Source: Psammoneis japonica (taxonomy: Eukaryota). Taken from it: a stretch of DNA of 64,000 nucleotides. Position numbers and translations under genes: made by a program. Positions 9,157-45,813 of the stretch are shown piece after piece (positions within the stretch are counted from its first letter, which is position 1; each line of letters starts with the position of its first letter). A model generated the notes under the pieces. That model was not told the DNA's origin. It saw nothing but the letters and a program-made list of their open reading frames with translations, and did no database searches. Where the stretch lies: NCBI GenBank assembly GCA_008632985.1, contig QPGO01000023.1:679681-743680 (forward strand). Reading direction: 5' to 3'.

Positions 9157-9504
9157 TGTTTCATGTTTTGGAATGAGAATCGATTGATTGATTCTTGATG
9201 ACACGAACAAGAACCGGACGAAGGACGAGCCGCGTCGTTTTTTTGCTTCGCGCGCGGAGCGGAGATTTGAGTTTTGAGAGCTCGAGCCTTTTTGCTTTGA
9301 CAGCGGCCGAAATGATTCAAAAGATCTCTGATTGGAACGACGGACCTCTGCCTGCACAGTGTGTTCCAGAGAGACAAGGTAAGGCCCATTGTGCTTGGGG
9401 GATACTAGCGCTATCTTGTCACCGTTTTCAGCGCATGCTGCTCATTTCTACAACAGAGCGTCACTTTGCACATGACATGTGAAGTTCAAAGGAGATGATG
9501 TGTG

Positions 9505-17578: not shown

Positions 17579-18829
17579 GGCCGGATCATGGGTCACGGCG
17601 ATTTTTGATGTCTTTTTTTTTGTGCATGCGTGTGCGGTGTTTCGGTGAGACGTGTGAGAAATGTGAGACGCCGCTTGTCGGTGAAACGTGAAACGACATT
17701 GGGACAGTGGGCCCTCTCTCTCTCGTACGGTAGAGAAACGCCCCCAACAGGAGCAGGAGAGAGACTGTTGACCACTGCTGGGGACTCCAAAATTCACTTG
17801 TCAAGAGAATTGTCTTGTTTGAAGTTGACAAGTTGGATCCCAGGACCAAAGCAGCAGGACCGGAGCAGCAACGGCCGTCGTGCAGTTGAGGCAGCATCCC
17901 TCCTCGCCACAGCTGTGAGCTGTGAGACTCTCTTTGGAAGTTGCAACAAGATGGGTCCCAGAGCTGGTGGGGCAATGGCCGTTGCTGTTGCACATCCCAG
18001 AATTCCAATCAAGAGGAGGGCTGGAAGAACGAGTGGTGGTGGCCGCTCTTTTGCTTGCTCCATTGCCACCGCAGTTGCTGGGCAGCCGACACTTGCACTT
18101 GATGCCAGGTGCAAGTCATGGGGGTCTGGTCAAGGGTTACAAAGTGAACTCCAATCTCTGTGACAGAAAATGCAAATGGGGGTGGAACTGATTTGATCAT
18201 GAGCTTGATGCAGCCGGCATCACCGGATGCTGCGAAGAGCATTTGAGTGAAAATGACACCCAAGGCTGTGCCAGCCAGCAGCTCAAACTCGTCTAGAGCA
18301 AAGTCAGGAAAAGGTTGTCGCTGATGGTGGCACTTCAAGAATGGGCATCAGTGGGAGCAACAAAGCACCTGTTGGGAGAGTGAGCTCAGGGTGAAAATGC
18401 CGCCCAATGCAGCCAAACAAGACGCGATGGTTGCACATTTCAACCACAGAAATGTGAACTTTGGCACAAAGCACAGTGGCTCATCTGGTGTTGTCAGCGC
18501 ACACTTGTGCTGAAAAGAGTTCATGTTGATGGAGTGTTTTGTTGACACCAGTGTGTTGCATTTTTGGAAGATTGCAACATGTGTGTGGCTTCAGTGACCA
18601 ACCTGTGATGACATTTTGCATGATGCTGGTGTGCACACTGTCCTTGGCCCTCCTCATTGGCTTGCTGAAAACCATCCTCTTGTGCACTTTTTTGATGATG
18701 GTCAAGCCAGTTCAATTGAATGAAAAATTGTCTTGCAGCATCAGTCACTCAAAGATGTCAATGCAAAGAATTTGTTTTGCATGCTGGCACCTGGATTTTT
18801 TTCAAGCTTTCAAATGAACTTCATCAGCC

Positions 18830-19290
18830 AGCATTTGCCATTTTTTTGGAAACTTTTGTGCCAAGACTGCACAACAAAAATGTGTTCAGACAAGACTCAG
18901 AACAAAAAGGGTGAAAAAGCAAGAAAAGAGTGACAGGAGAGTGACTTTTGCACCATGATGTTGAGGAGCACAAAGAGAAAAGGGTGGGCACATGGGTTGC
19001 CAATGGCTGCAAAAGAACAGCCAGTTTTGCATTTGAAGGGCTTGGGAGACATGTTTGCGTTTGCAGCAAATTTGCTGTTGCTTTGTTGCTGCAACTGCAG
19101 CCAATGATTGGCTGAGCTGCTCAATTTTTGAGAGATGACAAGGTGTGGTGCACACATTTTCACATGATGCAGCACCAGCACAACCTCTGTTTTGAGTTTT
19201 TTCAAGAGCTTGGCTCATCCTGCCACCACTGACCCAGCTTGCACTTTGATGTGCATCAACAGCCATGACACCAAGCTGTCAAACAATGCG
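18830..19290. repeat. Dispersed repeat, diverged copy of ~42000-42440
   Basis: Shared blocks GAGCTGCTCAATTTTTGAGAGATGACA, CCACTGACCCAGCTTGCACTTTGATG and ATTTGAAGGGCTTGGG in the same order. Confidence 0.8.
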
Positions 19291-19755
19291 CGTTGATGCC
19301 CAATTGGACCTGTGCACAGAAAAGCGCACATCAAACATGTCTTGGGATTGGAAAATTTGCAGTCACAGTGAAGTCTCAAAACAAATTTCTTCCACAGACC
19401 TGCCACAATGTTTTTCTGCTTTTGCAGTCTGGGTGTGGCAGTTGTTTTTGTTTGTTGTTGTGAGCAGAGGCATTCATGGCAGCCTGCAGTGTCATCAAGC
19501 CATGCCCTCACCTTGGTTCGAAGCACCACCATGCAAAAAGCAGTCTGGGGCCAAGAAACTTGAAGACAATGTTGGGCTGGGACAACTTGCACAAGGTTCT
19601 GCAATCTCATCCATTTTTAACTCATCATTGCCACCCAAACTGCACATGCTGCCTTGAAGAGCCTGGCCATTTTCAGGCCTCTTCATGGTTGCTGCCATGC
19701 AAATCAGGTGGGGGGCATGTGGAGAAATCCTGGTCTCTGCACAACCAACATTTGT

Positions 19756-19786
<31 letters not shown>

Positions 19787-19789
19787 CCC

Positions 19790-20535
19790 TTTTGCAACAA
19801 ATGTGATGATCCTCTGCAAACAAGGCAAGGATTCCCACTTTGGCCAACAGGTGTCACATCTCCTCTTTCAATTGAAGCCAAACATTTGACAGCTCACAGT
19901 CAAACCATGAAACCACTGCACAGAGTGGTCTGGCACAACAACTTGAGAACAATGAAATCTCATCAAAATTCCAATGCATTGTTGCTCTCCAAACCTTGCA
20001 CCAGAAGGCTGAGGCACTGTGGTTGTCTTCACGGTCACCACCACATTCCCAGGAATTTCTGTGATTTTAAGCACAGGCACTTGGACCCTGAATCAGATGA
20101 GGCATGATGAGCATTCTTAGCCATTGTGCATGACCGACCCTTGTTCTCTTCTCCCATGCAGATGTGATGATCCTCCATGCAAAATGATGCAAGGATTTCC
20201 GCTCTGACTAAACAGGTGTCAGATCTCCTTTCAACAGAAGCCAAATAATGTCGCGAAGTCGAGAAAATGCCCAGTCAGGTCGCATTGCGGACGTTGACCG
20301 CTCAGAGCCCCATCCACCATCCACCATTGAAACATGTTAGCGGTCCAGCACAACTAAAGAGGACAATCTTTGTAAGACTTATGTGAGGTCCTGAAATCTC
20401 ATCGATTTTTTTAAATGTTTTATTGCTGTCCAAACCGCACACTCGAAGAGCTAGGGCATTGTAGGCATCTTCGTGGTCGCCACCGTCGTTGCAAACAAAC
20501 TTGTTTTGATTTGCGCGGGCACTTCGACCCCTGAA
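19790..20535 (-). pseudogene. Two tandem decayed copies of the 3' ~425 bp of the adjacent GT31 gene
   Basis: Units end at CCCTGAA (20091, 20535; gene equivalent ~20960) and share GAAATCTCATC, CCAAACC, TGATCCTC and GCAAGGATT with the gene. Confidence 0.85.
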
Positions 20536-21645
20536 TCAGACGAGGCATGTAGAGTTTTTCCAGCCTTTACACAACCGATTTTCACTCTTTTTTCCATTGC
20601 ATACATGGTGATCCTCCAAATATAAATGACGCAAGGATTCCCATTTTGACCAAACAGGGGATAAATCTCCTTTCAACGGAAAGTAAATGTCGTGAAGTCG
20701 AGAAAATGTCAGATCGGGTACCTTTGCAAACGTTTGACTGCTCACAGCCCCACCATGAAACAAAATAGAGCGGTGTAGCATAACTTGGGGACAACCTTGA
20801 GCTAGGACTTGTGTAAGATCCTGAAATCTCATCGATTTGTTGAAAGTGATGTTGCTGTCCAAACCGCACACTCGAAGAGCTACAGCATTGTAGGCATCTT
20901 CGTGTTTACCATTATTCCAAACAAGCTTCTTCGATTTTGAGCAGGCGCTTAGACCCTGAACAAGATCATCTGACATGATATAACCCCAACCACGGATAAA
21001 CGACAATCTTCTTAATCGTTCTCCGGTTCCAACATATTTGAAATTCAAATGATAGCCTTGTCCTCCAAGAAATCGATGACGGGGCCATGTATTAGAGTCT
21101 TCTAGTAGACGGTCGAGTAGAAGATACGATTCATCATCAAGCTTCATGTGATAGTCAGCCTGAATATTCAAGGAAGCCCATTCATACCACGCATTCATCT
21201 TGCCAGTGTTGTGGACGTCTGAACTGTTCAGCAGTACGACATCGCCATAGTGATCCCGTTCGGCCTGCAATTCCGTTATATTGTGCGTCGCATCCAGAGG
21301 ATTCCCTTGTATTCTGGGTTCTTGTTTGTTTCCAATGAGAAAGTACACAAGGATTGTGCCATCCTGAACCGCGGGATGTTTCATCCACGTATCTCGGTGC
21401 ATTTGCCGACGCATAAAACTTGAACCACGTGGGGGTCTTTCTTCCCAATCAAAGGAAGAGATGATTGCGATTGCAATTTTGCGTTTTGTTGAATTCTCCA
21501 ATGAAGAAGGAACCGTCACAGCGTCAACTTTGGTGGCGACCTTGGATTCTCGAAGAAAAAACGATTGGAATTGGGTGAAATTAACGCTCGCCATAACCAA
21601 GGCCACCAATATAATCACACCCACTTGGACGAGACTTTTCTTCAT
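20536..21645 (-). CDS. Glycosyltransferase family 31 (beta-1,3-galactosyltransferase-like), type II membrane protein
   Basis: N-terminal TM anchor; RRQMHRDTW, VYFLIG, ELQAERDHYGDVV, YHMKLDDESY, GWGYIMS, HEDAY; intact with normal TA/CG content. Confidence 0.85.
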   Translation of the reverse strand: MKKSLVQVGVIILVALVMASVNFTQFQSFFLRESKVATKVDAVTVPSSLENSTKRKIAIAIISSFDWEERPPRGSSFMRRQMHRDTWMKHPAVQDGTILVYFLIGNKQEPRIQGNPLDATHNITELQAERDHYGDVVLLNSSDVHNTGKMNAWYEWASLNIQADYHMKLDDESYLLLDRLLEDSNTWPRHRFLGGQGYHLNFKYVGTGERLRRLSFIRGWGYIMSDDLVQGLSACSKSKKLVWNNGKHEDAYNAVALRVCGLDSNITFNKSMRFQDLTQVLAQGCPQVMLHRSILFHGGAVSSQTFAKVPDLTFSRLHDIYFPLKGDLSPVWSKWESLRHLYLEDHHVCNGKKSENRLCKGWKNSTCLV

Positions 21646-21899
21646 TGTAGACCTTCAATGTGGACAAAATCTGCGTTGCGTTGTTGCACTTTGGTTGCAT
21701 TTAAAAAAAAAAAGAATTGGATAATAGAGACAGATGAGAGAATCATTTCGTGGATTGAAAACCGAAGCTTTGGAGCTTGACAGGAGTTTCGGCATTTTTG
21801 TCACATTCGTGGAAAAAGAGAGAGATAGAGGAGGCGGTTTTCCTTGATGATGATTCGTTCCGTTGAGTGCGCCAAAATTTCAAATTTTTGAAGCAGAAG

Positions 21900-24079
21900 C
21901 GTTGAGGCGAGCGCTTGGCGCGCGCGCACACACCTCGAAAGGCAACTGCCGTTACCACCACCAACGACACCAGTGGCATCACCGAGCCTGCTGCCGCCGA
22001 TGATACCTCCGCCGCTCCTATCGACTCCAACGACCCTCCCATCGACTCTGCCTCCGACAACCATACGCCCTCCACCACCTTCAAATGCATGTTCGACACA
22101 AATCACCCAACCATGGAACCGGGCCCACTCGACCCTGATGCAATCACCCGCATCATCACGCAAACGCTCACTCACCACGCCGACTGTGAGCCTCTCACCA
22201 TCAAACTGTGGGATGTCCAATGCACCTCCACCACAGACATTAACTGCAACACACCATGCAAAACCAAAAATTGGCACTCACCATGCGACATCACCCTCAT
22301 CCCAGCTGCCAACGAAGAGCAACTCGACTTCCAGCTTTTCCACGAACAAGCCATCCGCCTCGTCCAGAATTGGCACGCCACCCCACATGCCACTTTCATG
22401 AACTTACCACCAACGACCAATGCCCACACTGCATCCCTTCCACTTGCCCCCTGGAATTTGCCACTGCCGAGCCGTGGGTCGAACACTGCACACCTCGCAT
22501 CCCTGCCTTCAACAACTTCAAATGCTCCGCTTGTGGCATCCTTGCTGGTGCTTCTCCCAACTGCCATGGTCCCACACACTGCACCATGGAGTTCCTGCTT
22601 GCATGCCTCCACAACCACATCCTTGCCCTCCTTCCCAACCAGGACCCACCTGGAGCCACCATCCAACCAGAGTTCCGCACCTGTGAAACCTTCGTCAATC
22701 ATGTTGGTCTCCGCCCAGCCCGCTGGAAAGGCCGCCGCACCGGACCCTCTGTCAACATCCACTGTGCATGCACCCCCACCGACACTGCTTGGAATGCATC
22801 AACCAGGCTCCTCAATCCACCCGGCAAGGAGTGCAGCAAATTCACAGTCTGCAACATCCCGTTTGCCGTGCTTCCCTTCCCCACTGACACCAACAACGCC
22901 GACTGCCTCGCCCAGCAACTCCTCGCAATTGACCAAGGCCCTGCACAAGCACACTGTGTTCTCACTGCATGCCTGCACACCATCACTGATGCCGACATGG
23001 AGCACAATCTTGCCACCCCACATTGCACCGCCGCCACACCCGTCTTCCTGCCCCATGACAACGCCCCTGCGCACTTCAAACTCCCATTCAAACCCCACCC
23101 CCAGACCATCCACCTCACCAACAGAAATCTGCATGAATGCCCTGGGTTCCCAGCTGACCTCCTCAGCAACATCTGCATGCTGGGACCTCTCCCAAACGAT
23201 CCACCCACCTCCACACCTCAGCCCACACTGATCCCATCACCTCACTGCACCAAAGCCGCCCAAGCTCCACCAGCCCCTGCCATCTCCAGCCTCTCTCGCA
23301 CTGCCTGCACCTCCCTCTCTGCCACGCGGCAATTCCCACCCACCAACATCCCTGCCACCACTGCCCGTGCCTCTCCCAACCCCCGTGCGCCACCTGCTTG
23401 CCCTCCTCCTCAACACCGTTGTTCTCCTGGGCGTGGCGCCCCTGCACCCGGCTGTGGCGGTCGCGGATCCAACCCCAGAGTGAACCCTGGCTGCTCCCAA
23501 CCCCGCCACTCCTCCTCCACATCTGCCAACTCCACATCCAACCCTCCATCCTGGACCCTTGTCAGCCGCAAATGCCGCAACACCAACAGCACCCCACCTG
23601 ACCCCTTTGACACCATCCTCAATGCACCCATCCCTCCGTCCCAATGAGACATCGACAGAGACTGTGTGTCCAATGATGCATGCATGGACAACCTCACCCT
23701 CTTCGGCAAAGACGATGACCCCGATGACAACACCAACGCCATGAATGTGATGTCACAACACGACATCGACCACTGCGCCACCCTCACCACATGGGTCCAC
23801 ACCCATTGCCCTGAGTGCCTTTGAGAATGGAAGCACGCTAAAGCTCAGGCCATTGAAGACAACACCGATCCGCAATCTTTCCACCAGCATCTCCAAGAAT
23901 GGAACCCCCAAGCACCATGTGTCTGGAGTGCCCACACTGTGAATGGTCTCCACCGGAAAATGCCACCACCCAAGACCTCCCCAAGGCAGTCCGAGCTCAC
24001 CTGCGGGCCGAGCATAAAACCCCAGACCTGCGCTTTCTCCCACACGACTTCCTCTCCCAAGCCAACCTGCACTCGTGCC
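21900..24079 (+). mobile_element. 5' part of a decayed CRE-like non-LTR retrotransposon (ORF1-like region and C2H2 finger)
   Basis: Long C/A-rich frameshifted ORFs, then CPHC...HLRAEH...FLSQANLHSC, cut at 24080 by an LTR; same strand and composition as 26590-28935. Confidence 0.6.
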
Positions 24080-24971
24080 TGACAGACATCCGAGATGGGG
24101 AGCACACTCCCTTGTGTCGGACAGACCAGCATGGACAGCATGGAGAGATCCGATGATCTCTCCTTTGCTCACTTTCTTTCTCATCTAGCACACAATTGTC
24201 ATCTGTCCCAGATGTCCATTAGATTGTCCCGACACCGCTAGTCCACAAGGTTGTGAGCAGCAGTGCGCTGTTCCTCTTCCTCCACGCTCCTCTGTTGCAA
24301 TGCCCACTGTGTGATTTGGTGATTTTTCTTCATTGAAATCGTCATCATTGTCAGCCATTTTTTCACCTCTCGATTTGTGATCAAATGACCACCGCAGAAC
24401 ACACACCAGAGCTCTGTGCAGGAATTTGATTTTTTCCCACGCAACCATGGTGAACAAAAATCAAAACACCGTCGATTTGACCAAGATCAAGACGATGCGG
24501 GTTGAATTCAGCCCACATGATCTCTCACCCAATGCACACCGTCACCTGAATGCTCTTTGTTCCAACAAGATGCCTGCTCCTGAAGATCTTCTGGATGGAT
24601 TTGCTCCTCAAGGCCTCAAGAGCGACGCTGTTGCTGTCCTCCATCACAAGATCGTTCACAATCTCATCATCCCCCAAGCTGCCCTGACCAAAGATCTTGC
24701 GCGCATTGGACTGATCATTGAAAAGGCCCCTCTCTTTGTGGCCATCCCTCAAGACTCCCCGGTTCATCTGAACCTCAGTGCTCTTCAGAAGGCTGTGATC
24801 AAAGCGATCTCAGAGAACGATGACACCACAAAAGTGTGTGTTGGGACTTTACGTTTCCATTCAGCACTGTGATCGCTGGGATGATGTCTCAGATGATCCG
24901 CATCCAGACCCACCGCCCACCTCAAGTTCTGCATCCCCGCCGGTTGCTGCCACAGGTCCCACTCCTGAAGA
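24080..24971 (+). mobile_element. Ty1/copia-like 5' fragment: ~168-bp LTR (24080-24247), PBS and start of gag-like ORF
   Basis: TG...CA-bounded segment followed by A+GGTTGTGAGC (24249-24258), one change from GGTTATGAGC, the complement of the tRNAiMet anticodon arm used as half-tRNA primer by copia; ORF MVNKNQN follows. Confidence 0.6.
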
Positions 24972-24974
24972 TTG

Positions 24975-26350
24975 TTTTGGTGTGGGTGGCTCTTGATCAA
25001 CTCATGCGGACGCTTCGTCCAAATCGGTGAGATGTCAAAGAGAATCATCTTGATGGCAGCATGTCCATTGCCACAGCATTGACGAATGATGTCAGGGTGC
25101 TTGGAGTCTGCCGGAAAGATTCCAACCTTCTGAATGTGCTGGAAGACAGTCAGTTTCATTCTGTCAAGTGGCACTCTCATCCGGAGTGGGAGATCATCAG
25201 TTGGATCATTGCCACATGTGAAGCCCCAGTTTCCACCGTCCTTGATAAAGCATCACAGAGGGTGCATGCACACACCACAAGCCGAGGCCTGTTGGGTTGC
25301 AGCAGTGTGCTGTGCACGGATTCCTTGAGGGGAGATGTCCTCACAAGTGAGAGGATCACAAAGGAAAGACTTGGCATCCCAATCAATGTGATGAACAAAG
25401 AGAGAACCATCCGCAAGGATTGGACGCTCAGTGCCATCTTCACAACAAAGGTTTCCAGACTTGTGGGGTGCTGGTGATTTCCCTGGCACTGCTTTCCCGG
25501 CTTCCTTGCGTTGACAGCAAGCTGGTGCATCCTTTGGAAGTCCTTTTGGATTGAAGGTGTGTGGAGCACTGGCGGCAGTCAAGGAAGAAGCCGCACCAGC
25601 AGCAGTCATGACAGACGGCAAAGGAGATGGTGCTGCAGGAGCAGATGTCTTCAATGTGTTTGTCACAGCTTGCTCAGGCTGTTTTTAACCAGGCAAATGA
25701 GCAGCTGAGGCCTTGGCAAAGTCTTCAGGAGTGGGACCTGTGGCAGCAACTGGCAGGCATGCAGAACTTGAAGCAGGCAGTGGGTCTGGATGCAGATCAT
25801 CTGAGGTGTCTTCCCAGCAATCACAACACCAAAAACCAGGGCTGAAATGGAAACGCAAAGTCCCAACATGTGCTTTTATGGCATCGTTGTTCTCTGAGAT
25901 CACTTTGATCACAGCCTTCTGAAGAGTGCTGAGGCTCAGACGAACCAGGGAGTCTTGAGGGATGGCCACAAAGAGAGGGGCCTTTTCAATGATCGGTCCG
26001 ATGCACGCAAGATCTTCAGTCAGGGTGGCTTGGGGGATGATGAGATCATGAACGATCTCATGATGGAGGACAGCAACAGCGTCGCTCTTGAGGCCTTGAG
26101 GGGCAAATCCATCCAGAAGATCTTCAGGAGCAGGCATCTCATTGGAACAAAGAGCATTCAGGTGACGGTGTGCATTGGGTGAGAGATCATGTGGGCTGAA
26201 TTCAACCCGCATCGTCTTGATCTTGGTCAAATCGACGGCGTTTTGATTTTTGTTCACCATGGTTGCGCGGGAAAAAAATCAAATTCCCATGCAGAGCTCT
26301 GGCATGTGTTCTACGGTGGTCGTTTGATCACAAATCGAGAGGTGAAAAAA
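24975..26350 (-). mobile_element. Second, inverted and longer copy of the same copia-like gag region
   Basis: 25722-26350 is the reverse complement of 24358-24971; reading continues with GVCMHPL*CFIKDGGNWGFTCGNDPTDDLP...CCGNGHAAIKMILF; runs into the N gap. Confidence 0.65.
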
Positions 26351-26534
26351 NNNNNNNNNNNNNNNNNNNNNNNNNNNNNNNNNNNNNNNNNNNNNNNNNN
26401 NNNNNNNNNNNNNNNNNNNNNNNNNNNNNNNNNNNNNNNNNNNNNNNNNNNNNNNNNNNNNNNNNNNNNNNNNNNNNNNNNNNNNNNNNNNNNNNNNNNN
26501 NNNNNNNNNNNNNNNNNNNNNNNNNNNNNNNNNN
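26351..26534. other. Assembly gap (N run)
   Basis: 184 N bases. Confidence 1.

Positions 26535-26581
<47 letters not shown>
26535..26581. repeat. (CA)n microsatellite
   Basis: Pure CA run next to the gap. Confidence 0.95.
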
Positions 26582-26583
<2 letters not shown>

Positions 26584-26589
26584 AAGTCA

Positions 26590-28935: not shown

Positions 28936-29639
28936 CCAATGAAACATCACTGATCTGCACTGCAATGGAGAAAAGGACACGTGCTTCACATTGCTCCATC
29001 TTTCACTGGCAACGGGGAACCCAGACACACGATCATTTGCTGGGGTGGTGCAAACATCACCTGACATGATGATCCCCACTTCCGAGTCTCCTTTTGGCCT
29101 GCCCCCCTCTGCGGAGCTTTTGTCCGCTCCCTGCTGGGTTGTTTTTCAGCCCTCACCGTTGGTTCTCTTTTTCATTTGGGATCAATTGCTCTAAATTGCT
29201 GGACTTTGGTCAAGAAAATTCCAGGTTCTCTGTCTGGCAGCTGGGCCTGGCTTGCTCAGGTCCCAGACAGCATGTTTTGCCTTGTGCAGCGGTGGCTCTA
29301 AGATGGCTGCTCTTTTCTTCTTGCACAGGAGGCAGCAGCATTGCAGTTGTTTTGCACTGCAAGAGCACCTTGCAGCCAGCCACTCTTGTGCCAGTGCTGT
29401 GGCTGCTGCTGCCATTGTTGCTGGGCTTCTGGGTTCACACAGGGCCTGGTGGGCAGCCAGCAGCCAAAAGCAGCAATGTTTTTTGCTTTTCGCCATTGGC
29501 TGTCAAGCCCTGCAGCCCAGCTCCATTTCCCCATGACTTCGCTTCCATTTCTTCCTTGGCCATGCATGGCCCTGTCAACAGCCCTCCATCAGTTGTGCAT
29601 GACCACCCTGTCAACTGCCCTTCATCAACTGTGCTTGAC

Positions 29640-29815
29640 CCTTTTGCTTCTTTCTTTCTTTCTTTCTTCTTTCTTTCTCTCCTTCTTTCTTTCTTCTTTC
29701 TTTTGTTCTTTCTTTTGTTCTTTCTTTTGTTCTTCCTTTTGTTCTTCCTTTTGTTCTTCCTTTTGTTCTTCCTTTTGTTCTTCCTTTTGTTCTTCCTTTT
29801 GTTCTTCCTTTCTTC
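29640..29815. repeat. Pyrimidine-rich tract with 12-bp tandem repeat (TTCTTCCTTTTG)n
   Basis: Directly visible; reads as KEEQ repeats on the minus strand. Confidence 0.9.
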
Positions 29816-30049
29816 TCTGCTGGATTGAGAAAGCCAACCAGCAGTTTTCCTGTGGCACAATCTTTGACCAGGCACCTGCCAGCCCTTTTGCTGACTGTTG
29901 AACAGAACAAAAGTTGGTCATGCTGTGAGGTCATGAGTGCCTCCTCTGGCTGTCACTTTAGAACAAAACTTGTCAGCCACCTTTCTGCCTGCCAATGTTT
30001 TCTCAGTCACCACCCCACCACTGCCACATCCTCCTCCCACCCAACTCTC

Positions 30050-34800: not shown

Positions 34801-34809
34801 CATGCAACT

Positions 34810-37450
34810 CCCAACCATGGCTCTTTGGGGTTTGCCTTGGGTCCACCAAAGACAGTCAATGATGTTTGAACAACAGTTGTTGGGTGGGTGGGTGCACTCA
34901 TGGTGCTGTTTCACTTCAGAAGTTGGGAATCAAGTCTCACCTGACATTTTGTGAAGTGACATGGGCTGCAGCTGAGGCAGGTTGGCTTTGAAACTCCCTG
35001 CCATGGCACTTTAAGTGTCACCTTGGGTCCACAGAAGACATTCAATGGTGTTTGACAACAGTTGTTTGGTGTGTTGGCACATTCATGATGTTGTTTCACT
35101 TTTGATTTTGGGGCTCAAGTCTCACCCTGACATTTGTGAAGTGACATGGGCCACAGCTGATCCATGGTGGCTTTGCCACTCCCTGCCATTGCTTTTGAAG
35201 CATCACCTGGGGTCCACTGCACACATTCAATGGTGTTTGACAATGGTTGTTGTGTGGGTGGGTGCACTCATGGTGCTGTTTCACTTTTGAATTTGGGAAT
35301 CAAGTCTCACCCTGCTGGCAGTCATGTGAAGTGACATGGGCTGCAGCTGAGCCAGGGTGGCTTTGCTGCTCCCCCACCATGGCTCTTAAAGTGTCACCTG
35401 GGGTCCACTGCAGATATTCAATGGTGTTTGACAACAGTTGTTGGGTGGGTGGGTGCACACATGGTGCTGTTTCACTTTTGATTTTGGGAATCAAGTCTCA
35501 CCCTGACATTTTGTGAAGTGACATGGGCCACAGCTGAGCCAGGGTGGCTTTGAAACTCCCTGCCATGGCTCTTGAAGTGTCACCTGGGGTCCACCAAAGA
35601 AATTCCGTGGTGTTTGACAACAGTTGTTTTGTGTGTTGGTGTGTTCATGATGTTGTTTCACTTCAGAAAATTGGGGCTCAAGTCTCGCCCTGACATTGTG
35701 AGGTGACACAGAGCCAGAGTTGCACCACGGCAGCTTTGAAGCTTCTAACCATGGCTCTCAAAGTGTTGCCTGGGGTCCACTGCAGACATTCAAGGGTGTT
35801 TGACAACAGTTGTTGGGTGGGTGGGTGCACACATGGTGCTGTTTCACTTCAGAAGTTGGGAATCAAGTCTCACCCTGACATTTTGTGAAGTGACATGGGC
35901 TGCAGCTGAGGCAGGTTGGCTTTGAAACTCCCTGCCATGGCACTTGAAGTGTTGCCCGGGGTCCACAGAAGACATTCAATGGTGTTTGACAACAGTTGTT
36001 TGGTGCGTTGGCACATTCATGATGTTGTTTCACTTTTGATTTTGGGGCTCAAGTCTTACCCTGACATTTGTGAAGTGACATGGGCTGCAGCTGAGCCAGG
36101 GTGGCTTTGCCACTCCCTGCCATTGCTTTTGAAGCATCACCTGGGGTCCACTGCACGCATTCAATGGTGTTTGACAATGGTTGTTGTGTGGGTGGGTGCA
36201 CACATGGGCTGCAGCTGAGGCAGGTTGGCTTTGAAACTCCCTGCCATGGCACTTTAAGTGTCACCTTGGGTCCACAGAAGACATTCAATGGTGTTTGACA
36301 ACAGTTGTTTGGTGTGTTGGCACATTCATGATGTTGTTTCACTTTTGATTTTGGGGCTCAAGTCTCACCCTGACATTTGTGAAGTGACATGGGCCACAGC
36401 TGATCCATGGTGGCTTTGCCACTCCCTGCCATTGCTTTTGAAGCATCACCTGGGGTCCACTGCACGCATTCAATGGTGTTTGACAATGGTTGTTGTGTGG
36501 GTGGGTGCACTCATGGTGCTGTTTCACTTTTGAATTTGGGAATCAAGTCTCACCCTGCTGGCAGTCATGTGAAGTGACATGGGCTGCAGCTGAGCCAGGG
36601 TGGCTTTGCTGCTCCCCCACCAAGGCTCTTAAAGTGTCACCTGGGGTCCACTGCAGACATTCAATGGTGTTTGACAACAGTTGTTGGGTGGGTGGGTGCA
36701 CACATGGTGCTGTTTCACTTTTGATTTTGGGAATCAAGTCTCACCCTGACATTTTGTGAAGTGACATGGGCCACAGCTGAGCCAGGGTGGCTTTGAAACT
36801 CCCTGCCATGGCTCTTGAAGTGTCACCTGGGGTCCACCAAAGAAATTCCGTGGTGTTTGACAACAGTTGTTTTGTGTGTTGGTGTGTTCATGATGTTGTT
36901 TCACTTCAGAAAATTGGGGCTCAAGTCTCGCCCTGACATTGTGAGGTGACACAGAGCCAGAGTTGCACCACGGCAGCTTTGAAGCTTCTAACCATGGCTC
37001 TCAAAGTGTTGCCTGGGGTCCACTGCAGACATTCAAGGGTGTTTGACAACAGTTGTTGGGTGGGTGGGTGCACACATGGTGCTGTTTCACTTCAGAAGTT
37101 GGGAATCAAGTCTCACCCTGACATTTTGTGAAGTGACATGGGCTGCAGCTGAGGCAGGTTGGCTTTGAAACTCCCTGCCATGGCACTTGAAGTGTTGCCC
37201 GGGGTCCACAGAAGACATTCAATGGTGTTTGACAACAGTTGTTTGGTGCGTTGGCACATTCATGCTGTTGTTTCACTTTTGATTTTGGGGCTCAAGTCTC
37301 ACCCTGACATTTGTGAAGTGACATGGGCTGCAGCTGAGCCAGGGTGGCTTTGCCACTCCCTGCCATTGCTCTTGAAGTGTCACCTGGGGTCCACTGCATG
37401 CATTCAATGGTGTTTGACAACAGTTGTGTGGTGTGAAGTGATGTGGGCTG
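34810..37450. repeat. ~186-bp satellite, about 14 monomers, with a 1243-bp higher-order duplication
   Basis: GTGAAGTGACATGGG recurs every ~185-190 bp; ORF track entries repeat at a 1243 offset (35015/36258, 35703/36946). Confidence 0.95.
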
Positions 37451-37459
37451 CAGCTGAGC

Positions 37460-38830
37460 CTGCCTGGTGGCAAAGGAGGTTTGCAGCTGTCTTGGGATGG
37501 CATTGGAGGACTCCAGTGGGTCCCAGAGGATGCAACAACAACAATGGTTGGGAAGCAAAGGCCTTGTCTTGTGTCCACACAGCCCTTTGTCTCTCTGACA
37601 TGGCTGGGTTTCTTTGCCCAGCCACGCCACCTGCAAGAACAAGAAAACAATCTGTGCAACAGTGCAAGTGCTCTGTTGTCTTGGGGTGGCCTTGGAATGC
37701 TTGATCAGGTCCCAGAGAATGCAACAACAACAATGGCTGGGAAGCAAAGGCCTTGTCTTGTGTTGGTGCGGCACCTTGTCTCTCTGGCATGGCTGGGTTT
37801 TGGCCCAGCCAAGAACCGTCCTGCTGCAAGAAAGATGGGAGAACTGTCTGTGTGACAGTGCAAGCACTCCTTGTTGTCTTGGGACATTTGCAAGAGACTC
37901 CATTGGGTCCTCAAGGATGCAACAACAACAGTGGTTGTGAAGGAAAAGCCTTGTCTGGTTGTGAGTTTGGTTGCATGTCTTGGTGTCTCCAACTGGAGCA
38001 ACAAGCTTGCCGAGGGGTGCACAGCACATGAATGATTTTGGAAGCTGCAAGCCATGCTGTGGGCAGCAGCAGCAGCCCCTTGCATGATCCCTCCACACAA
38101 GAAAATGCCCATCTGCACAAGGTGCTGTGGGGAGGCATCAGCCAACCTGCAAAGAAAAGGGAACCATCTGTGTGATGGTGCAAGCACTGCATTGTCTTGG
38201 GATGGCTTTTGGCAGCTCAACTGGCAAGAAAGACAAGGGAGTCATCTGTGTGACAGTGCAAGCACTCCGTTGTCTCAGGATGGCTTTTGGTGGCTCAACC
38301 TGCAAGAAAGACAAGGGAGCCATCTGTGTGACAGTGCAAGCACTCAGTTGTCTGAGGACAGGCACAAGAGACTCTGTTGGGTCCAGGAGGAGGCAACAAC
38401 AATGGTGGTTGGGAAGGAAAAGCCTTTTGTCTTGGGCCAATGCAGCCCCTTTTCTTTCTGATGTGATCGGCTTGCTTTGGTGATGGAGCCACCACCCCAC
38501 CTGCAGAGGCAAGGGAGCTTTCTGCAGACAGCGCCAGTGCCCAGACGTCTTTTGCTGCCCCCCCCCCTTGGGTGACTCCATTGTGTCCCAGGAGAGCCAA
38601 CAACAACCTTGGTTGGGGAGCAAAGGCTTGTTTTGTGTCAACAATGTGGCCTCTTTTCTTTCTGATGACATGACTGGGGCCTTCTTTGGTCCAGCCAGCG
38701 CACCTGTGCAGATGCCATTGAGCCATCTGTGTGACAGCACAAGTGACCAGTTGTCTTGGGATGGCTGTGGGAGGAGACTCCATTGGGTGCCAGGGCATGC
38801 GCAACAACAATCATGGGAACTTTGTGCCAG
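37460..38830. repeat. Second ~180-bp repeat family; related copies also at ~34130-34810
   Basis: Recurrent GTGACAGTGCAAG...TTGTCTTGGG...CAACAACAATGG.TGGGAAGCAAAGGC; 34490-34790 matches 37470-37780 and 34381-34460 matches 38041-38120. Confidence 0.85.
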
Positions 38831-41800
38831 TGCATGAGATTGCAATGGCTGAAGGCAGAGTGGCACAGGCCTGTGTTTGCATGGTCGGCAGTGGCTTTGT
38901 CATTGTGAAGGCAGCAGCAGTGGTGGCAGTTGCTGGGTTTGGACCATCAGCCGGCACTGCAACAGCTCCAGCAGCAGAGCCTTGGTTTCTCTGAGGGCTC
39001 CTGCTGCTGAGCTTTTGTGGCTGAGATTGAGCTTGAGATTTGCCAGCTCAACCTGCACAGCAAGACTGTGAAAATTTGCATCTTAACAAGAACACATTGA
39101 CACAATGAAAGATGAGAAATTGACCAACTGCCGACACACATGTAAAACCTAAATGACTGGATGATTCATTGAGTCATTTCAAATCATTCAAACCTTCAAA
39201 ACGGAATGTGAGCATGGAATTTTAAAACAAAATTGTCACTTGAAAATGATGCTGACAGGAATCACCAGGCAGACAGGCTCAACATTGCTGCAAAAACATG
39301 AGCCATCATTTCCTCACAAGACACAAAACACAAGGCCCATCAAACATCATGACAATGACACAAGCAGCAAGGGAAGACAACAGAAGAGCACCAGGGGGAG
39401 GAGGACAATGTGGAACACAAGGCAAGAGAGAGGCAGGAACTGAGTCTGTGAGTGCACAGAGTTTGGGCAACAATGCAAACAACTGATGCTTTGGCCAATC
39501 TTTCAACTCAGACATGATGTTGATGACATGCAAAGGGAGATGGAAGGGAAGACAGCCCTGCAGGGGCCACACAAAGGTGAGCAAAGCACATTCAAAACAA
39601 TGCAAATGCAATGCTCTCATCTGTTGCGTGCTCTTTTCTCTTCTTTGCAGGCAATGCTTTGGCAAACTGGTTCGAAACACAAAAGAGACATGGTCGTGCG
39701 CAAAGGTGAGCAGAAGCACTGTTTTTGTCAAGACAAGCCCACTCAAAAATAAAACATGTGCAATGCTCTGATCTGTTGCAAGCTCTTTTCTCTTCTTTGC
39801 AGGTGAAGCTTTGGCAATCTGGCATGCCAAGCAAAAGAAACAAGGTCACGACATGGAATGAACGATGGGATTTTGTGCATGGCAAGTGAGAGCGGATGCA
39901 AGGGTCAGCAAAATGAGCGAAGCATCATGCCATCACTGCGGCACAGGAGAACCGGCAGGAGACAGGAAAAAGCCAAGGAGAGAAGAGCAGGAAACAGGAA
40001 GCAAAAATGCGTTCACTGCAGAAATGACAAAACACAGCTGGCACAATCACATTGCAAGAAACACACAGCCAATGTACGAGCATCTTAATGCAACAAATGA
40101 ATGTTGCAGTTGTCAGAAATGAACAATGTTGCAAAGCAGTCACAATTGCACCCTTGTTGAGAAGTTTCATTGACAACTGTTTCCCACTTAAAAGGTCGCA
40201 TTAATTGTGAACGTGAACTGAATAATTTTGAAATCATTGTGGTCGTCATCTTGTCAAGATTGAATGAAGAATTAGAGTCATTTTCATCAAGTGTTAAATC
40301 CCACTTGGCATGTTGAAACAATTGTTAAAATCGATTTGTGCACAATTGATGAGCACTTGTCAAGAACACAGGATTCTCAACAAGAGCAAAACGAGCTCTG
40401 AACAAGAGCCATGACATTTTCCAGATGCATCTTGTTCGCCAGTGCAGGTGATGTGCGCACCTGTGCCCAGCTGCACACTGTGCACAGCACTCCTTTGTCT
40501 CTCAAATTTGATTGCAACTGCCTTGAAAGCCTCATGATCAAGGTCAAATGGAGCAGATGGTGAGACCCATGAAGGTGCATGCAGTGCATTCTGAGCTGAG
40601 TTCAGAGTGGCAACACCACCACGCTCCTCCCCAAAATCAGAGCAGTCCAAAGCAAATGGTTCCAAAGGTTGCTCACTGATTTCCTCTGCCCTCCCGCGGT
40701 CTTGATCCCACCCTGGATCATCATGTGCAGGAAACATGTCATTGTCTGGGAGAGCATTGGTGTCAGCAGACGTCAAAGAAAGTGATGGTTGGATGTCTGC
40801 AAGAGTTTACATGGAGAAAGAGGTTTCTGAGGGGGGGGGGGGGGGGGCGACAGAGTGGGTGGCCCCTCTTTTGGTGTCACGTTGCCATCATTTGTGTTGT
40901 CTTGGTCAGAGGTGAAAGGAAGGACTGCATTGGAGATCTGAAGCTGGCTGCTGCAGCCTGGCTGAAACTCCAGTGCACTTTTCACAAAATGGAAGAGCAA
41001 GTCCATGCTGTCCTGTGGGCAAGGTTCCTCAGTTGCCATGAAAGGAAGAGGTGCGCTGCACTGCTCAGCACTTCAGGAACTGACAAAAGCAGATGTGAAA
41101 GCCATTGACACACAGATTGCTTTGCAACACTGGGCAGTCATCAAAAAGATGATCGCTGGTGCAGACCACATGGATGTTTCACACAGCCTCATTTGGAGAC
41201 ACGTTGACATTTAGCGCCAAAGCCAAACAGGCGTGGTGCAAGATGGGCCTCATCTGTGTGTGTCCATTGAGAGCGGGGCTTGATGCGGTGTCAAGTGAGT
41301 CCAGGTTGGCATCAAGTGGGTCTTTTTCTTTGTGTTCCAAGAATCAACCCTGCGTTGCAGCAACTGCAGGGACTTTGGCGTCATTTGCACTGGTGGTGAC
41401 AGGGGGCTTGCCAGGGCAGTTGTTGGTGGCACCCAAAATGCAAGGGAGCCATCTGACTGGCTGAGAGATGCAGCAAATGTTTCCACTGTCTGTTTCTTCT
41501 TGGTGTGCTTGCACACGCATGCTGGGGAGTCTTGGTCATTGTGTGCAACATGAGCCAAGAACTTGGAAGAATGCTCGGCACTCTTGAGGAAAGGGATCAT
41601 CTCCAAGTGGTCACCCAAAAGAGGCAGGAGTCAGCATCAAAAATGTGTGCGTGGAGTTGCAAAAAATCCTTGAACACAATGAAGCAGCTCACAACAGAAC
41701 CCATCACAAAACACTGGATGCCCCTGAAAAAGGTTTGTGTCAAAGCATTCTTGCAGCCATTGCCACAGCAGGAGGCAACAATCCAATGCCACCAGTGGCT

Positions 41801-41999
41801 GTTCTTGGGAAACTGTCAGCATGGGACAACAGCTTGTGCAGCACATGTGATGTTCCAAGCAACTCACACGCACCTGATGTGGTGGATTGTCAAGGTGGCA
41901 GTTTCCAAAGCAGGCAAAGCCCCAGTCTCCTCAAAAAGAAGCCATCACAAAAGATCTGCTGTGCGTGCTGGCACCAAGATTTTTCTGCATGCTTTCACA

Positions 42000-42440
42000 A
42001 AGAGCTTTGCCAGCTGTTTTCCATTTTTCACAGAAACTTTGGTGTCAAGATGCACTGAACAACAAAAACAAGTGGGGCAAGATGCAGCACTGAAAGAGTG
42101 AAGAAAGTGAGACATGATGTCAGGAGAGTGGTGATTTTTGCATCACAATTTTGAGGGGCACAAAGGAAGGCAGGGCTGCCAATGGCTGCAAGAAACATCA
42201 TGCCAAAAGCTTTGAATTTGAAGGGCTTGGGGTGTTGGCATTCACACAGCAAATGACCAACTGAGGAGCTGCTCAATTTTTGAGAGATGACAGGGCGGGT
42301 GTGCACATGCATTTTCACATGATGCATGCAGCAGCAGCACAAGAGCCTCTTGAGTTGTTTCATGCTCAGCTTGTCCTGCCCACTGACCCAGCTTGCACTT
42401 TGATGCGCATCAACAGTCACAACATCAAGCTGTCAAACAG
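42000..42440. repeat. Dispersed repeat, diverged copy of ~18830-19290
   Basis: Same shared blocks as the partner copy. Confidence 0.8.
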
Positions 42441-43949
42441 CGTGCACATCAAGGTGCAATCTTCAAGCAACATGTGCTTTTTGGCATTTTGATGACATGC
42501 CAGCAGCATGACATTGGCAAATTCAGAAGCCTCACACCAAGTTGCTTTTGGCTTCTTCTGAACAAAAAGTTTGCATTGTCAGGAGTGGCGATGCAAGGCT
42601 TTTGCTTGTCCTCAGTTCAACTGTGCCAAACATCCAGTGCACACTTGTGGCACTCCAAGCCTCAAACAGAAAACCAGCACACACATGCTTGGGTGGAGAT
42701 GAAGCTTGTGGACACAACAGCTTGCTGCTCAGATGCTGGAAGTTGCAAGAGGGTCCTGGATGAGCCACAAGGATGCACAGATCCATTGGTCCAAGAAACA
42801 AACCACAACCCAGTCAGTTGATTGTTTCCCTGTCACATTGAAAGGGTTGGACCCAACAAGATCTTTGTTTGACATCTTGTTGGCTCCAAATGCCATGTTG
42901 GCAAGAATCTGCACCTCAGTGAACACACACACATTTGTCAAACTTTCCAAGTGTTCCTCCATTTCCAAAAAGTGCAACAGTGGCCCTCACTGCTCTCAAT
43001 GATGCAGCAAAATGCTTTGTCAGACCACTTGCTTTTCAATGTTGTGCAGAACATGCAAGACCTTCCTGCCATCTGACAGTCTGTTGGCGAAACACACTCT
43101 GGCAACTTCAGCTTCTTTTCCAGTTTGTCGTCAGACTTTCATCTCAATTGTTGTGCTTCTTGCCACCATTGCCAGGATCATTGTCACTCAGATTTGATTC
43201 ATTGTCTCTCATTGCCCACTGCAGCTGCCTCCAATCTGTCAATTTCTGTGTCACTTTCTCCATTTTCATCAAGACAAGAATCCACATTGCCAGCATCAGG
43301 ATTTTCTCCAAGCCATTGAGCCCTTCATCATGGTCCCAACCCACCTCAAACTCAACAGCACCACAGCGCAATTGCCACCTGTTGCAGCAGCTGCTGCTGT
43401 CATTGTCAGAGAAGCAACTTTTCTGCAAATTGTGTGGCAACACCCCATCATGCATGCTTCTGAGTCAAACTCAAAGGCAATTTGCACAAATGCAGCTTTT
43501 CATTTCCACCTGATGCAGAAGCTTGGCTGGCCAAGGCTGTGCAGGCAATCTTGCCCAGGCACCCCGGCTCCCTTGAAAGAGCTTGCAGCCAAAGACATTT
43601 CAATGACAAAAGGAGCAACACACGCATTGATGCCATTTTTTGTGACACAAAATGTTGTCAACAAGATGCTCTTGGACAAACCAGCTTTTTTATTTGCCTC
43701 TCTTTTCCCTTTTGTCCCACCACAAGTTTGTTGTGTGCTCATGGTGTCAGCGCTGTGGCATTTTGAAATGCAACAGACTGTTCTCAAAAGCAAAAACAGA
43801 GAGCAATTTGAATGAAGCCAACATTTGACAGCCCTGCTGAGCCATGTTAGAGAAAAATTGGTCCAACTGCCCAGGTGGAAAAATTGAGTGTTGTGGAAAT
43901 TACAAGGCCAGTTTGTGTGCACACACAAGCACAACAGGGGCATGTGGAG

Positions 43950-44690
43950 CTTGAGACCCTTCGCACTGATGTGGTCATGTGTTTGCACATGAGGGCCAGT
44001 CACTCAGGTTACAACTCATCTGTGTGAAAGCCCCACAGCCTGCTGCAGGTCTCATGCTGTGGCTCATGCTGCTTCAGCACAGTGTGCTGATGCATGATCA
44101 TCAGCGCCACCTCCACATGCCAGCCTGCAGATGCATGAAAGCAGCCTCACTGCATCATCATGCCCAGGGGGTTCCCCCCACTGCAATTTCAAACACTTCT
44201 GGCACAAGCAGGAGTCAAAGATGTTCAAACAACTGCAAGAAATCATCAAGCTGCATCAAACTGCTGTGCCAACATTGTTCAAAGTGCAACTCAAGGACAC
44301 CCTCATGGTGTGGTGAAAGCTCAACAGATTGTTGACAACGCCCCAGCTGCAGCCGCACACAGCCTGCACTGTGTGAAGTGTTTCCAGAGTTTTGGGGATG
44401 TCACCCAGAGCTTTGATGTGCCAGACATGCTTTGTGATCTGCCACTTGTTGGAAACATGGCTTCCATTTGAGATCATTTCAGGTCTTGACTGACAGCTGT
44501 TTGTGTGTTGGCAGAATCTCAAAAGACACCTCTTTGATTTTGTTGAGCCAGGCAACAAGTTTTGATTGAGAGCAATGACCCTGGCAAGTTGGACACAAGA
44601 TTTTTTGGTCCATTTTCTGTCACAAAAGTTCATGCAAATGGAGACATTGTGCTGCAAAAAAGAACACACCTCTCGCGCATTTGGGCAAGT
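43950..44690 (+). mobile_element. Decayed Ty3/gypsy integrase fragment
   Basis: FQTLLAQAGVKDVQTTARNHQA...IVDNAPAAAAHSLHC...DMLCDLPL...NDPGKLDTRFFGPFSVTKVHANG matches the gypsy integrase core and GPF/Y module. Confidence 0.8.
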
Positions 44691-45813
44691 TGACACTCTG
44701 CCACGGTGGCAGAGATTGACAGATTCAGCACTCAGCTGAGTTGTGCAAAAGTCAAGAAAAGTGAAGTGAACTTCTGCATCATTGCTGCATCATTGGTTGT
44801 GTTGCCAAATGAAGATTTGGGCTGCTCAAATGACCAGGGCACTGCCCCCCCCTCCGCCCCCCCTCTGCCGTCACACTGCAACTCACACCTCGGACTCCAA
44901 ACATTTTTTCTGCATGATTTCTGCACAGCCTGCCTGCACAGCTTGCAGCAATGGTGGCGCAGCAACTTTGAAGATGCAAGCTCTCTCTGACCTCTGAGAA
45001 CGCCGTTTCTGTCAGATGCGCTGCATCTCGCCCTCCCCCGTGCTGGTGCTTTTGGCGAGCACAAATTCTCAGAGTGCAGCGCCATTGAGTTTGGTGTGTT
45101 CACCACACATGGGCCCATCTCTTTCCCATGGCAGCAGCCCCATTTCTTGTCTTATAAAACTCAGTTCCAACAGCTTCAAACCAATGTGAAAAACACCGCA
45201 CACAGACCTCCAATGTGGGAGCGCGGTGAATAAAATGTGGAGTTTTGGTCTGACATCATCACTGTAACCATCACAGACTCATGTCTGTGACAGAAATCCG
45301 AACACTGCTGGAGACATCGAACGACGTGTTCGCTTCGTTCGTGACTTCTTCTCATTAAGACCGTTGAGCGGTGTCAGTCATGGTCATCAATCGCGTCTTT
45401 CATTAAATGCTGTAAAGTACCGTAGGCCCCGTACGACGTTCTACTGACACACGGACATCTTCTTAGATCCGCGATCTTAGTCCCGCGTCGATGCTGGTTC
45501 CTGATCTTCCTTTGGTCGTCAGCTAAATAAAATATTATGATACATACATGATTGAATGATGAACATTTGACACCCGGTCATTCTCAAACGTCAATTTCAC
45601 GTAGAAATCTACGATAATTCAATGGTGACTTTCGTTGCAGAGACATTGACGAAGATCGAAACGAGAATCGATTGACCATTTGTTACGAGCAACACACAAA
45701 AATTAAAAAAAAAATCCTCCCAGCCCTTGGTGCTAAATACTCTTTTCAAACCTTCTCTTTTCTTACTTCAAAGTTTCTGCGACCTACGAACTTCTACTTT
45801 ACAAACAAATATA

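Follow-up and report, generated by a model that had tools for sequence, protein, structure and literature searches.

What has removed nearly every TpA step, and many CpG steps, from a block of repeats that lies among ordinary genes of Psammoneis japonica? The DNA in question, referred to here as the window, is a stretch of 64,000 nucleotides (contig QPGO01000023.1 of assembly GCA_008632985.1, positions 679,681–743,680 of the forward strand), and all positions below are those of the window. An earlier note on the same stretch (the original prediction) placed a repeat-targeted hypermutation system at 17750–45300, converting both TpA and CpG to TpG/CpA. We favor, with moderate confidence, the reading that dead transposons and satellites were rewritten in place by two context-specific transition processes, one being decay of CpG and the other a TpA mutator restricted to this island. 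The island consists of two blocks, separated by a short unaffected stretch.

17740–20060, no strand: mutated block 1, TA/CG-poor and TG/CA-rich, from TA and CG positions.
20068–22064, minus strand: unaffected stretch with a Galactosyl_T (GT31) gene at 20536–21654 (−) (PF01762, E = 3.1e-11).
22065–45150, no strand: mutated block 2, from composition and TA and CG positions.

The limits were set from 500-bp windows and from the positions of single TA and CG sites (∼17,740–20,060 and ∼22,065–45,150), and the edges of the blocks are sharp, within ∼100–200 bp. An island does lie over the predicted extent, but it is not continuous; the stretch from 20,068 to 22,064 is normal (10–21 TA and 18–31 CG per 500 bp) and splits it. 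Across 2-kb windows of the island, the ratio of observed to expected counts (obs/exp) was 0.02–0.18 for TA, 0.07–0.72 for CG, 1.56–2.42 for TG, and 1.35–2.21 for CA, compared with 0.41–0.83 for TA and 0.85–1.42 for CG in windows of the flanks. These ratios, with the counts per kb given below, agree with the description first offered, in which TA is near absent, CG reduced, and TG and CA dominant while neighboring genes are normal. The GC content of the island is ∼0.46–0.58, that is, near 50%. TAA and TAG triplets are nearly gone, leaving TGA as the sole remaining stop codon, and it is because of their near absence that the island carries many long overlapping open reading frames (ORFs). A run of 184 Ns occupies 26351–26534. 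Twelve ORF-free pieces of the flanks, 6.7 kb in all, have an obs/exp of 0.73 for TA and 1.00 for CG. They are normal, which argues against a genome-wide bias surfacing in neutral sequence, and the TA ratio of the island (0.02–0.18) does not resemble that of this ORF-free background (0.73).

At the left edge of block 1, 17538–17739 is CpG-dense and TA-poor (20 CG in ∼200 bp). It adjoins the upstream side of the likely start of an ankyrin gene and may thus be promoter sequence that does not belong to block 1.

A comparison per kb of the island (25.2 kb) with the flanks (38.6 kb) in the same 64-kb window allowed losses and gains to be balanced. The island contains 98 TA, where ∼980 would be expected at flank density. 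TA stands at 3.9 per kb in the island and 39.0 in the flanks (a loss of 35.1), and CG at 19.6 and 55.0 (a loss of 35.4). TG is raised from 73.5 to 105.9 and CA from 72.2 to 113.7. Taken together, TG and CA gain 73.9 per kb (219.6 versus 145.7), against summed TA and CG losses of 70.5, and the total of pyrimidine-purine (YpR) steps is the same in the two compartments (243.1 in the island, 239.7 in the flanks). CpG decay covers only ∼35 of the ∼74 extra TG and CA per kb, which argues for a second process at TpA. The steps AA (72.7 per kb in the island versus 76.6 in the flanks) and TT (77.2 versus 81.2) stay at ∼0.95 of the flank. AT is lowered (51.5 versus 67.1) and GC raised (71.6 versus 57.4), as would be expected if ATA became ACA and TAC became TGC.

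The two arms of the proposed mechanism can be put as follows. Arm 1 would convert CpG to TpG/CpA, leaving 7–72% of the expected CG in amounts that vary among elements, and would most simply be deamination of 5-methylcytosine (5mC) in methylated repeats. Arm 2 would convert the T:A pair of 5′-TA-3′ to C:G, yielding CA or TG, and would have come near saturation throughout the island. Its cause may be an active, targeted enzyme or mark that follows the logic of repeat-induced point mutation (RIP), guided by heterochromatin or by repeats.

The products of these changes are unevenly shared between the strands in some segments. At 22–24 and 26–29 kb, CA is about twice as frequent as TG and the GC skew is −0.4 to −0.5; at 33–38 kb, the sign of the asymmetry is reversed. 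The asymmetry was probably inherited from the composition of the elements (the coding strand, Pro/His-rich at 22–24 and 26–29 kb), and a stranded mutation process is conceivable.

The direction of the changes was read from the remnant of a long interspersed nuclear element (LINE) in block 2, whose ORF survives in two parts.

26589–27455, plus strand: N-terminal part of the LINE ORF, matching residues ∼10–370 of full-length homologues (tblastn).
27535–28878, plus strand: C-terminal part of the LINE ORF, with a presumed CCHC knuckle and restriction-like endonuclease (RLE) region, from homologue coverage.

A profile search with the ORF at 27567–28661 returned 197 proteins at E ≤ 1e-3 (best, 3.9e-43); no homologous protein of near length to the LINE ORF was found. 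The RVT_1 domain is central in all five of the full-length relatives tested (5/5), and the copy in the window is without this reverse-transcriptase core, homologue residues ∼370–760 being unmatched between 27455 and 27535. What we take to be the CCHC knuckle and PD-(D/E)xK-like endonuclease motifs at 27535–28878 were named by eye. Judged by sequence, 26589–28878 (+) is the remnant of an RLE-type non-long-terminal-repeat retrotransposon of R2/CRE-like architecture, an assignment that holds at the level of RLE elements.

The LINE remnant was aligned with 150 homologues over its C-terminal part and with 19 over its N-terminal part. A site was polarized where a single transition would restore a residue present in at least 20% of the family and at least three times as frequent as the present residue; counts are given as forward mutations on the pyrimidine strand. 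C>T changes were found at 13/199 CpG, 0/8 CpA, 0/134 CpC, and 2/94 CpT sites, that is, 13/199 at CpG versus 2/236 at other CpN. T>C changes were found at 8/192 TpA, 1/178 TpC, 2/52 TpG, and 1/122 TpT sites, so that in this one LINE the rate at TpA is above that at TpC or TpT. When compared with all non-TA, non-CG transitions, the TA-type changes have an odds ratio of 4.2 (p = 0.009) and the CG-type changes one of 6.8 (p = 8e-5).

Among the TA-type events, eight in all, Leu>Pro (CCA) occurs twice and Tyr>Cys, Tyr>His, Val>Ala (GCA), Ile>Met, Ile>Val, and Thr>Ala once each. At the eight Tyr-rich columns of the alignment (Tyr in at least one quarter of the homologues), the LINE copy has Cys or His six times, Phe twice, and Tyr never. 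Cys and His make up 11% of homologue residues at these columns, giving a p value of 4e-5 for the excess in the copy, and each of the 150 homologues has at most two. Tyr accounts for 1 of 364 and 0 of 289 residues in the two parts of the copy, compared with 2.0–2.5% in homologues. In addition, Arg CGC has become Cys TGC five times. Two substitutions read earlier from conserved motifs are borne out by the 150 homologues; the codon at 28005 is TGC where Tyr (42%) or Phe (28%) is usual, and that at 28182 is TGC where 76% have Arg.

When metagenome contigs were scanned with an alignment built from five homologues, 47 LINE loci were obtained, and in 47/47 the obs/exp was 0.33–0.87 for TA and 0.35–1.06 for CG. 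The scan pattern held DP[FY]GDH and was thus biased against Tyr-mutated copies, which makes it uninformative on the process in other organisms. One LINE homologue from another source, P0134, has Cys for the Arg of its relatives at three places and keeps Tyr in DPYGDH; judging from the protein, it is a case of plain CpG decay without the TpA arm.

Whether the changes arose in these sequences where they now lie can be asked of the repeats, since copies can be compared with each other.

24358–26350, no strand: terminal inverted repeat (TIR) element with arms at 24358–24971 and 25722–26350 (∼615 bp; 614 aligned, 91% identity).
30354–31276, no strand: 174-bp satellite with TA lost and much CG kept, from repeat comparison.
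34487–38900, no strand: 186-bp satellite and related short repeats, including a 1.24-kb higher-order repeat (34959–36219 and 36202–37458, 98.8% identical).
18751–19285 and 41935–42439, no strand: repeat common to both blocks (83% identity, nine CA/TG double mismatches).
19740–20150, no strand: galactosyltransferase 3′-end copy 0, in block 1 and stripped of TA and CG, from alignment with copies 1 and 2.

The arms of the TIR element differ by 54 mismatches over 614 bp, 51 of which are transitions and 47 of which fall in YpR steps. Aligned steps comprise 13 pairs of CG with CG, 16 of CG with TG or CA, 3 of TA with TG or CA, and 14 of CA with TG. A CA/TG pair can arise from an ancestral TA or CG if the arms are struck on different strands; any other origin demands two adjacent changes. 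Uniform CpG decay would give 2.46 such double mismatches rather than 14 (p = 3.5e-7). The excess would be accounted for by ∼30 ancestral TA sites in the 614 bp, with a probability of mutation of ∼0.95 per site and arm; the corresponding probability for CG is ∼0.38. The copies of the higher-order repeat have 15 mismatches, including 10 YpR transitions, with 3 CA/TG pairs against 0.1 expected. The 174-bp satellite gives 44 against 5.6 expected, a comparison in which monomer pairs are not independent. The changes arose in place, on DNA, after the sequences were there.

The galactosyltransferase gene itself provides a further comparison, as its 3′ end is tandemly triplicated at 19740–21040 (units of ∼440 bp, 70–76% identical). 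Over the aligned stretches, copy 0 retains 2 TA and 2 CG, copy 1 has 12 and 22, and copy 2 has 22 and 18. Parsimony across these three copies was too noisy to polarize the changes. Copy 0 is mutated and copies 1 and 2 are spared, a pattern more suggestive of leakage or a domain edge than of a mechanism that recognizes that repeat. A flank ORF (45676–48357) contains an internal tandem repeat of ∼207 bp (46289–46865, 93–97% identical) in which 27 TA and 29 CG are kept in both copies and none of the 10 mismatches is a YpR transition.

The second, island-restricted A:T>G:C process at TpA that had been proposed is therefore upheld by the mass balance, the polarized LINE changes, the double changes made in place, and the normal ORF-free flank. 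The signature is polarized, is confined to the island, and was imposed on sequences already in place.

The sites at which TA survives reveal the neighbor preference of the second process. They are most readily seen in a zone where erasure is incomplete.

31300–34300, no strand: intermediate zone with 12.1 TA/kb, ATA/TAT sites gone and TTAA all kept (pooled with 40,000–40,400).

Survival was computed by symmetrized tetranucleotide as the ratio of core to flank. ATAC and ATAG are at 0, followed by ATAT (0.014), GTAC (0.016), CTAC (0.036), ATAA (0.04), GTAA (0.11), CTAG (0.13), CTAA (0.19), and TTAA (0.34). Taking the 47 LINE loci as the baseline leaves the order unchanged, and the less mutated zone (31.3–34.3 and 40.0–40.4 kb) repeats it, with ATAC, ATAG, and ATAT at 0 and TTAA fully kept. 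Erasure thus runs from ATA/TAT through GTA/TAC and CTA/TAG, with TTA/TAA far behind. A multiplicative model in which each adenine of TA would be hit according to its 3′ neighbor (T>C>G>A) matches the ten values reasonably well.

For CG, survival is 0.21 in TCGA, 0.26 in ACGT, 0.50 in CCGG, and 0.62 in GCGC. The effect of context is mild, with A/T-flanked sites lost more than G/C-flanked ones, and is confounded by GC-rich segments. When the NTGN gains were regressed on flank contexts, R2 was 0.18–0.24 for TA and, with CG alone, negative; the result is weak, as flank contexts stand in for the ancestral composition. The two losses are uncoupled along the island. CG loss is weakest in parts that have already lost their TA, such as the 174-bp satellite and 22–28 kb, and the interval 30,001–32,000, which includes this satellite, has an obs/exp of 0.72 for CG and 0.10 for TA. 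Because TA loss is uniform and near complete and CG loss is variable (0.07–0.72), we assign the former to a faster, active process and the latter to slower decay of methylated CpG.

The CG arm resembles ordinary decay of 5mC, with CG at 0.07–0.72, a gain of TG and CA, and Arg CGC converted to Cys TGC. Such decay cannot remove TpA, however, and leaves about half of the TG and CA gain to be explained. Diatom transposons are CG-methylated in Phaeodactylum. There, DNA methylation disappears when DNMT5a is lost, with overexpression of young transposons (PMC9998398). Basidiomycete RIP-like hypermutation is CpG mutation confined to TCG; the preference of the island for A/T- over G/C-flanked CG is, by comparison, mild and confounded by GC content.

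Fungal RIP is the closest known system in its logic. Both involve dense, near-saturating transitions limited to transposon and repeat DNA, with sharp edges near genes; in both, copies are mutated independently in place (as in the TIR arms), and there is a slight effect on neighboring sequence (as in copy 0). RIP is triggered by the length and identity of repeats and depends on RID/DIM-2-type enzymes in the sexual phase. The window contains duplicates that are not mutated, namely the 207-bp flank tandem repeat and gene-end copies 1 and 2. RIP is found in Neurospora and other ascomycetes, whereas the host here is a stramenopile. In chemistry the two are opposite. RIP is a C:G>T:A change, mostly CpA>TpA, and so creates TpA and AT-rich DNA (PMC2621366). 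The island, in contrast, destroys TpA by A:T>G:C, keeps a GC content near 50%, and has no polarized C>T at CpA (0/8). Any enzyme responsible may be categorically new.

What might such an enzyme do? A tentative proposal, which we hold as possible and short of probable, is that adenine in T-A-N is deaminated to hypoxanthine on DNA by a TadA/ADAT-like or other deaminase. The outcome expected of such an enzyme (A>G with a 5′ T or U) fits the polarized counts (8/192 at TpA versus 1/178 at TpC and 1/122 at TpT), and the strict 5′ T fits the U33-A34 substrate of TadA/ADAT enzymes. The RNA substrate of the known enzymes (a tRNA loop or double-stranded RNA) does not fit, as the changes were made in DNA. 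APOBEC (on cDNA) and ADAR or ADAT/TadA (on RNA) likewise provide context-specific, deamination-type transitions that inactivate mobile elements, but they act on single-stranded cDNA or RNA before integration, whereas here DNA that includes non-retroelements was changed after integration. Taken to its full extent, the proposal becomes doubtful: a RIP-like genome defence in the diatom lineage, in which a natural enzyme would convert adenine to hypoxanthine at chromosomal 5′-TA-3′, best at TAT, and would be aimed at heterochromatic or repeated DNA. A full-text literature search, with most subscription journals outside its reach, returned work on fungal RIP, APOBEC and ADAR editing, CpG decay, and dinoflagellate 5-hydroxymethyluracil but no account of repeat-restricted TpA removal, and no description of natural A-to-G editing of chromosomal DNA was found in the literature searched.

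Several points weigh against the two-process reading and against its enzymatic form. All of the evidence comes from one locus, set against its own flanks and against homologues from elsewhere. The polarized sample is small, with 8 TA-type and 13 CG-type events in a single element. In the survival ratios, flank or foreign LINE DNA takes the place of the ancestral composition, and the test of CA/TG discordance takes all CpGs in an arm as equally mutable. No enzyme found in nature is known to us to deaminate the adenine of double-stranded chromosomal DNA. In addition, the 3′ preference (T>C>G>A) is unlike that of TadA (a UACG loop) or ADAR (3′ G).

The alternative that survives best, although we think it unlikely, places the mark on thymine. 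A TET/JBP-type dioxygenase would oxidize T in the TpA of silenced repeats, to 5-hydroxymethyluracil (5hmU) or further; the modified base would at times pair with G and so slowly turn TA into CA/TG, in the way that 5mC turns CG into TG/CA. T>C at N-T-A with a preferred 5′ A is described equally well from the T side, and a single logic, the decay of two palindromic epigenetic marks, would then serve for both arms. However, the 5hmU-rich genomes of dinoflagellates are not known to have lost TA. The precedent comes from these organisms. One report describes 5hmU in a dinoflagellate as enriched in repeats, where it helps to silence transposons, and cites an older study in which T was preferentially replaced in TA and TC (PMC11572971). 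The likeness to the island lies in a thymine modification with TA/TC preference, found on transposons and tied to silencing; the differences are that 5hmU is a mark and is not reported to be mutagenic, that it belongs to another lineage, and that TpC is untouched here (1/178). A literature search returned no report of 5hmU in diatoms, which also counts against a thymine mark.

Error-prone patch repair is a much weaker candidate and, in our estimate, very unlikely. T:G mismatches from 5mC deamination would enter non-canonical mismatch repair, in which a pol-eta-like polymerase would introduce A>G at WA. In its favor, both arms share one island and TA is a pol-eta hotspot. The original prediction named this mechanism as one of three candidates, of which the other two, a TadA/ADAT-like deaminase acting on DNA and the decay of a modified adenine, may hold. 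WA includes AA, however, and the pattern of pol-eta and somatic hypermutation, with hits at both TA and AA, is not what is seen; AA/TT are kept at 0.95 of the flank while TA, at 0.10, is nearly gone, and the mechanism is disfavored. TA loss also goes further than CG loss, and the two are uncoupled (TA 0.10 and CG 0.72 in the 174-bp satellite), which is the wrong order for a process set off by CpG deamination.

A similarly low probability attaches to an artefact of assembly or base calling at heavily modified heterochromatin bases. Long-read base-callers do err at methylated repeats. Three sequencing runs, all from one sample and with no RNA run among them, are listed for the stretch. One of them, available as contigs of exact 31-mers, contains 0.76 of the words sampled from 38,001–48,000 (∼70% of which is island), and so most of the island words there. 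As this is the only run in which the sequence is present, and as the sample it shares with its two companions may be the one behind the assembly, it is not independent, and this too must be set against the two-process reading. A strand-specific miscall at a palindrome would, we infer, produce conflict between strands and not a clean 97% loss of TA with lowered CG. The CpG arm, moreover, looks like ordinary decay, with its five Arg CGC to Cys TGC changes.

RNA editing of transposon transcripts (A-to-I and C-to-U), fixed by reverse transcription, is more improbable still and is largely refuted. The sole polarized element is a retrotransposon and ADAT/TadA-type enzymes act on U-A, as this explanation would have it. 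The signature is also present, however, in the TIR element, the satellites, and the pseudo-copy of a host gene end, and therefore editing followed by retrotransposition cannot explain it; the TIR arms and the higher-order repeat copies were mutated independently once they existed as DNA. The least probable explanation of all is that there was no mutator: the elements would always have been TA-poor, or have been selected to avoid TA and CG (for example, for nuclease escape), or the lineage would have a genome-wide TA>TG/CA bias visible in unconstrained DNA alone. This draws on the suppression of UpA and CpG in many viruses and mRNAs (PMC5659819) but is contradicted by the destruction of conserved residues (Tyr changed to Cys or His, Arg to Cys, and Leu to Pro), the deletion of the reverse-transcriptase core of the LINE, TA ratios of 0.33–0.87 in related elements elsewhere and 0.73 in the ORF-free flank, and repeat arms that diverged in place at former TA sites.

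The remaining content of the island gives little to homology searches. Six-frame Pfam scans (X at stops) of 17.6–20.0, 22.0–26.35, 30.3–34.4, and 38.8–45.4 kb returned no transposon family at E ≤ 0.1, and Pfam searches with 24 island ORFs returned no transposon domain. Of the labels first given to the elements, the CRE-like architecture, the TIR element, and the satellites stand, but copia and gypsy were not confirmed by the six-frame scans. The only matches, to Toxin_35 and DUF819, fell below the cut-off and were treated as chance. For the ORF at 22244–23647, no homologous protein was found and ESM Atlas scores were at most 0.81; a Tc1/mariner DDE motif seen there by eye is an unsupported resemblance. 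The stretch that reads CCGNGHAAIK near 25060 had neither a homologue nor a Pfam family. Microsatellites of the CTTT type and of a 12-bp type (TTTTGTTCTTCC-like) occur in both blocks, at 19727–19814 and 29628–29833.

The flanks consist of compact genes with long ORFs, encoding Upf2, a 7tm_7-like receptor, ankyrin proteins, a 3′–5′ exonuclease, glycosyltransferases, a GTPase, and a DUF72 protein. The best 120 listed relatives of the GTPase (60375–61748, −) are 53–58% identical, and every organism-named match is a diatom; the proteins thus place the host among diatoms or their close relatives, with no near neighbor in the protein collection. The 538-aa ORF at 7825–9441 (−) matches PF08395, a family of chemosensory 7tm receptors of the insect type (E = 1.6e-07; 31.5 bits, cut-off 26.6). 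The 893-aa ORF at 45676–48357 (+), which carries the 207-bp repeat, matched no Pfam family. Over 46,001–47,000, CA numbers only 6–15 and TG 47–48 per 500 bp, with a CG obs/exp of 1.42.

To our knowledge, the described forms of repeat-directed hypermutation (RIP and its relatives, APOBEC) and the decay of methylated DNA all change C to T. Near-complete removal of TpA by A:T>G:C, confined to a block of transposons and satellites, would add to genome defence a mutational arm of a new kind, and would do so in a major marine algal group. Behind it there would have to be either a natural DNA adenine deaminase, an activity directly relevant to base editing, or a mark on the thymine or adenine of silenced DNA that causes mutations. 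If the former is true, this would be the first natural DNA adenine deaminase, serving a defence that leaves dead transposons GC-neutral and without TAA or TAG stops. Repeats treated in this way escape homology-based annotation of transposons (Pfam is blank over most of the island), carry long spurious ORFs because TAA and TAG have been erased, and bias analyses that rely on composition. With so simple a signature (low TA and CG, high TG and CA, unchanged total YpR, and ATA/TAT lost first), the question can be put to any assembled genome at once.

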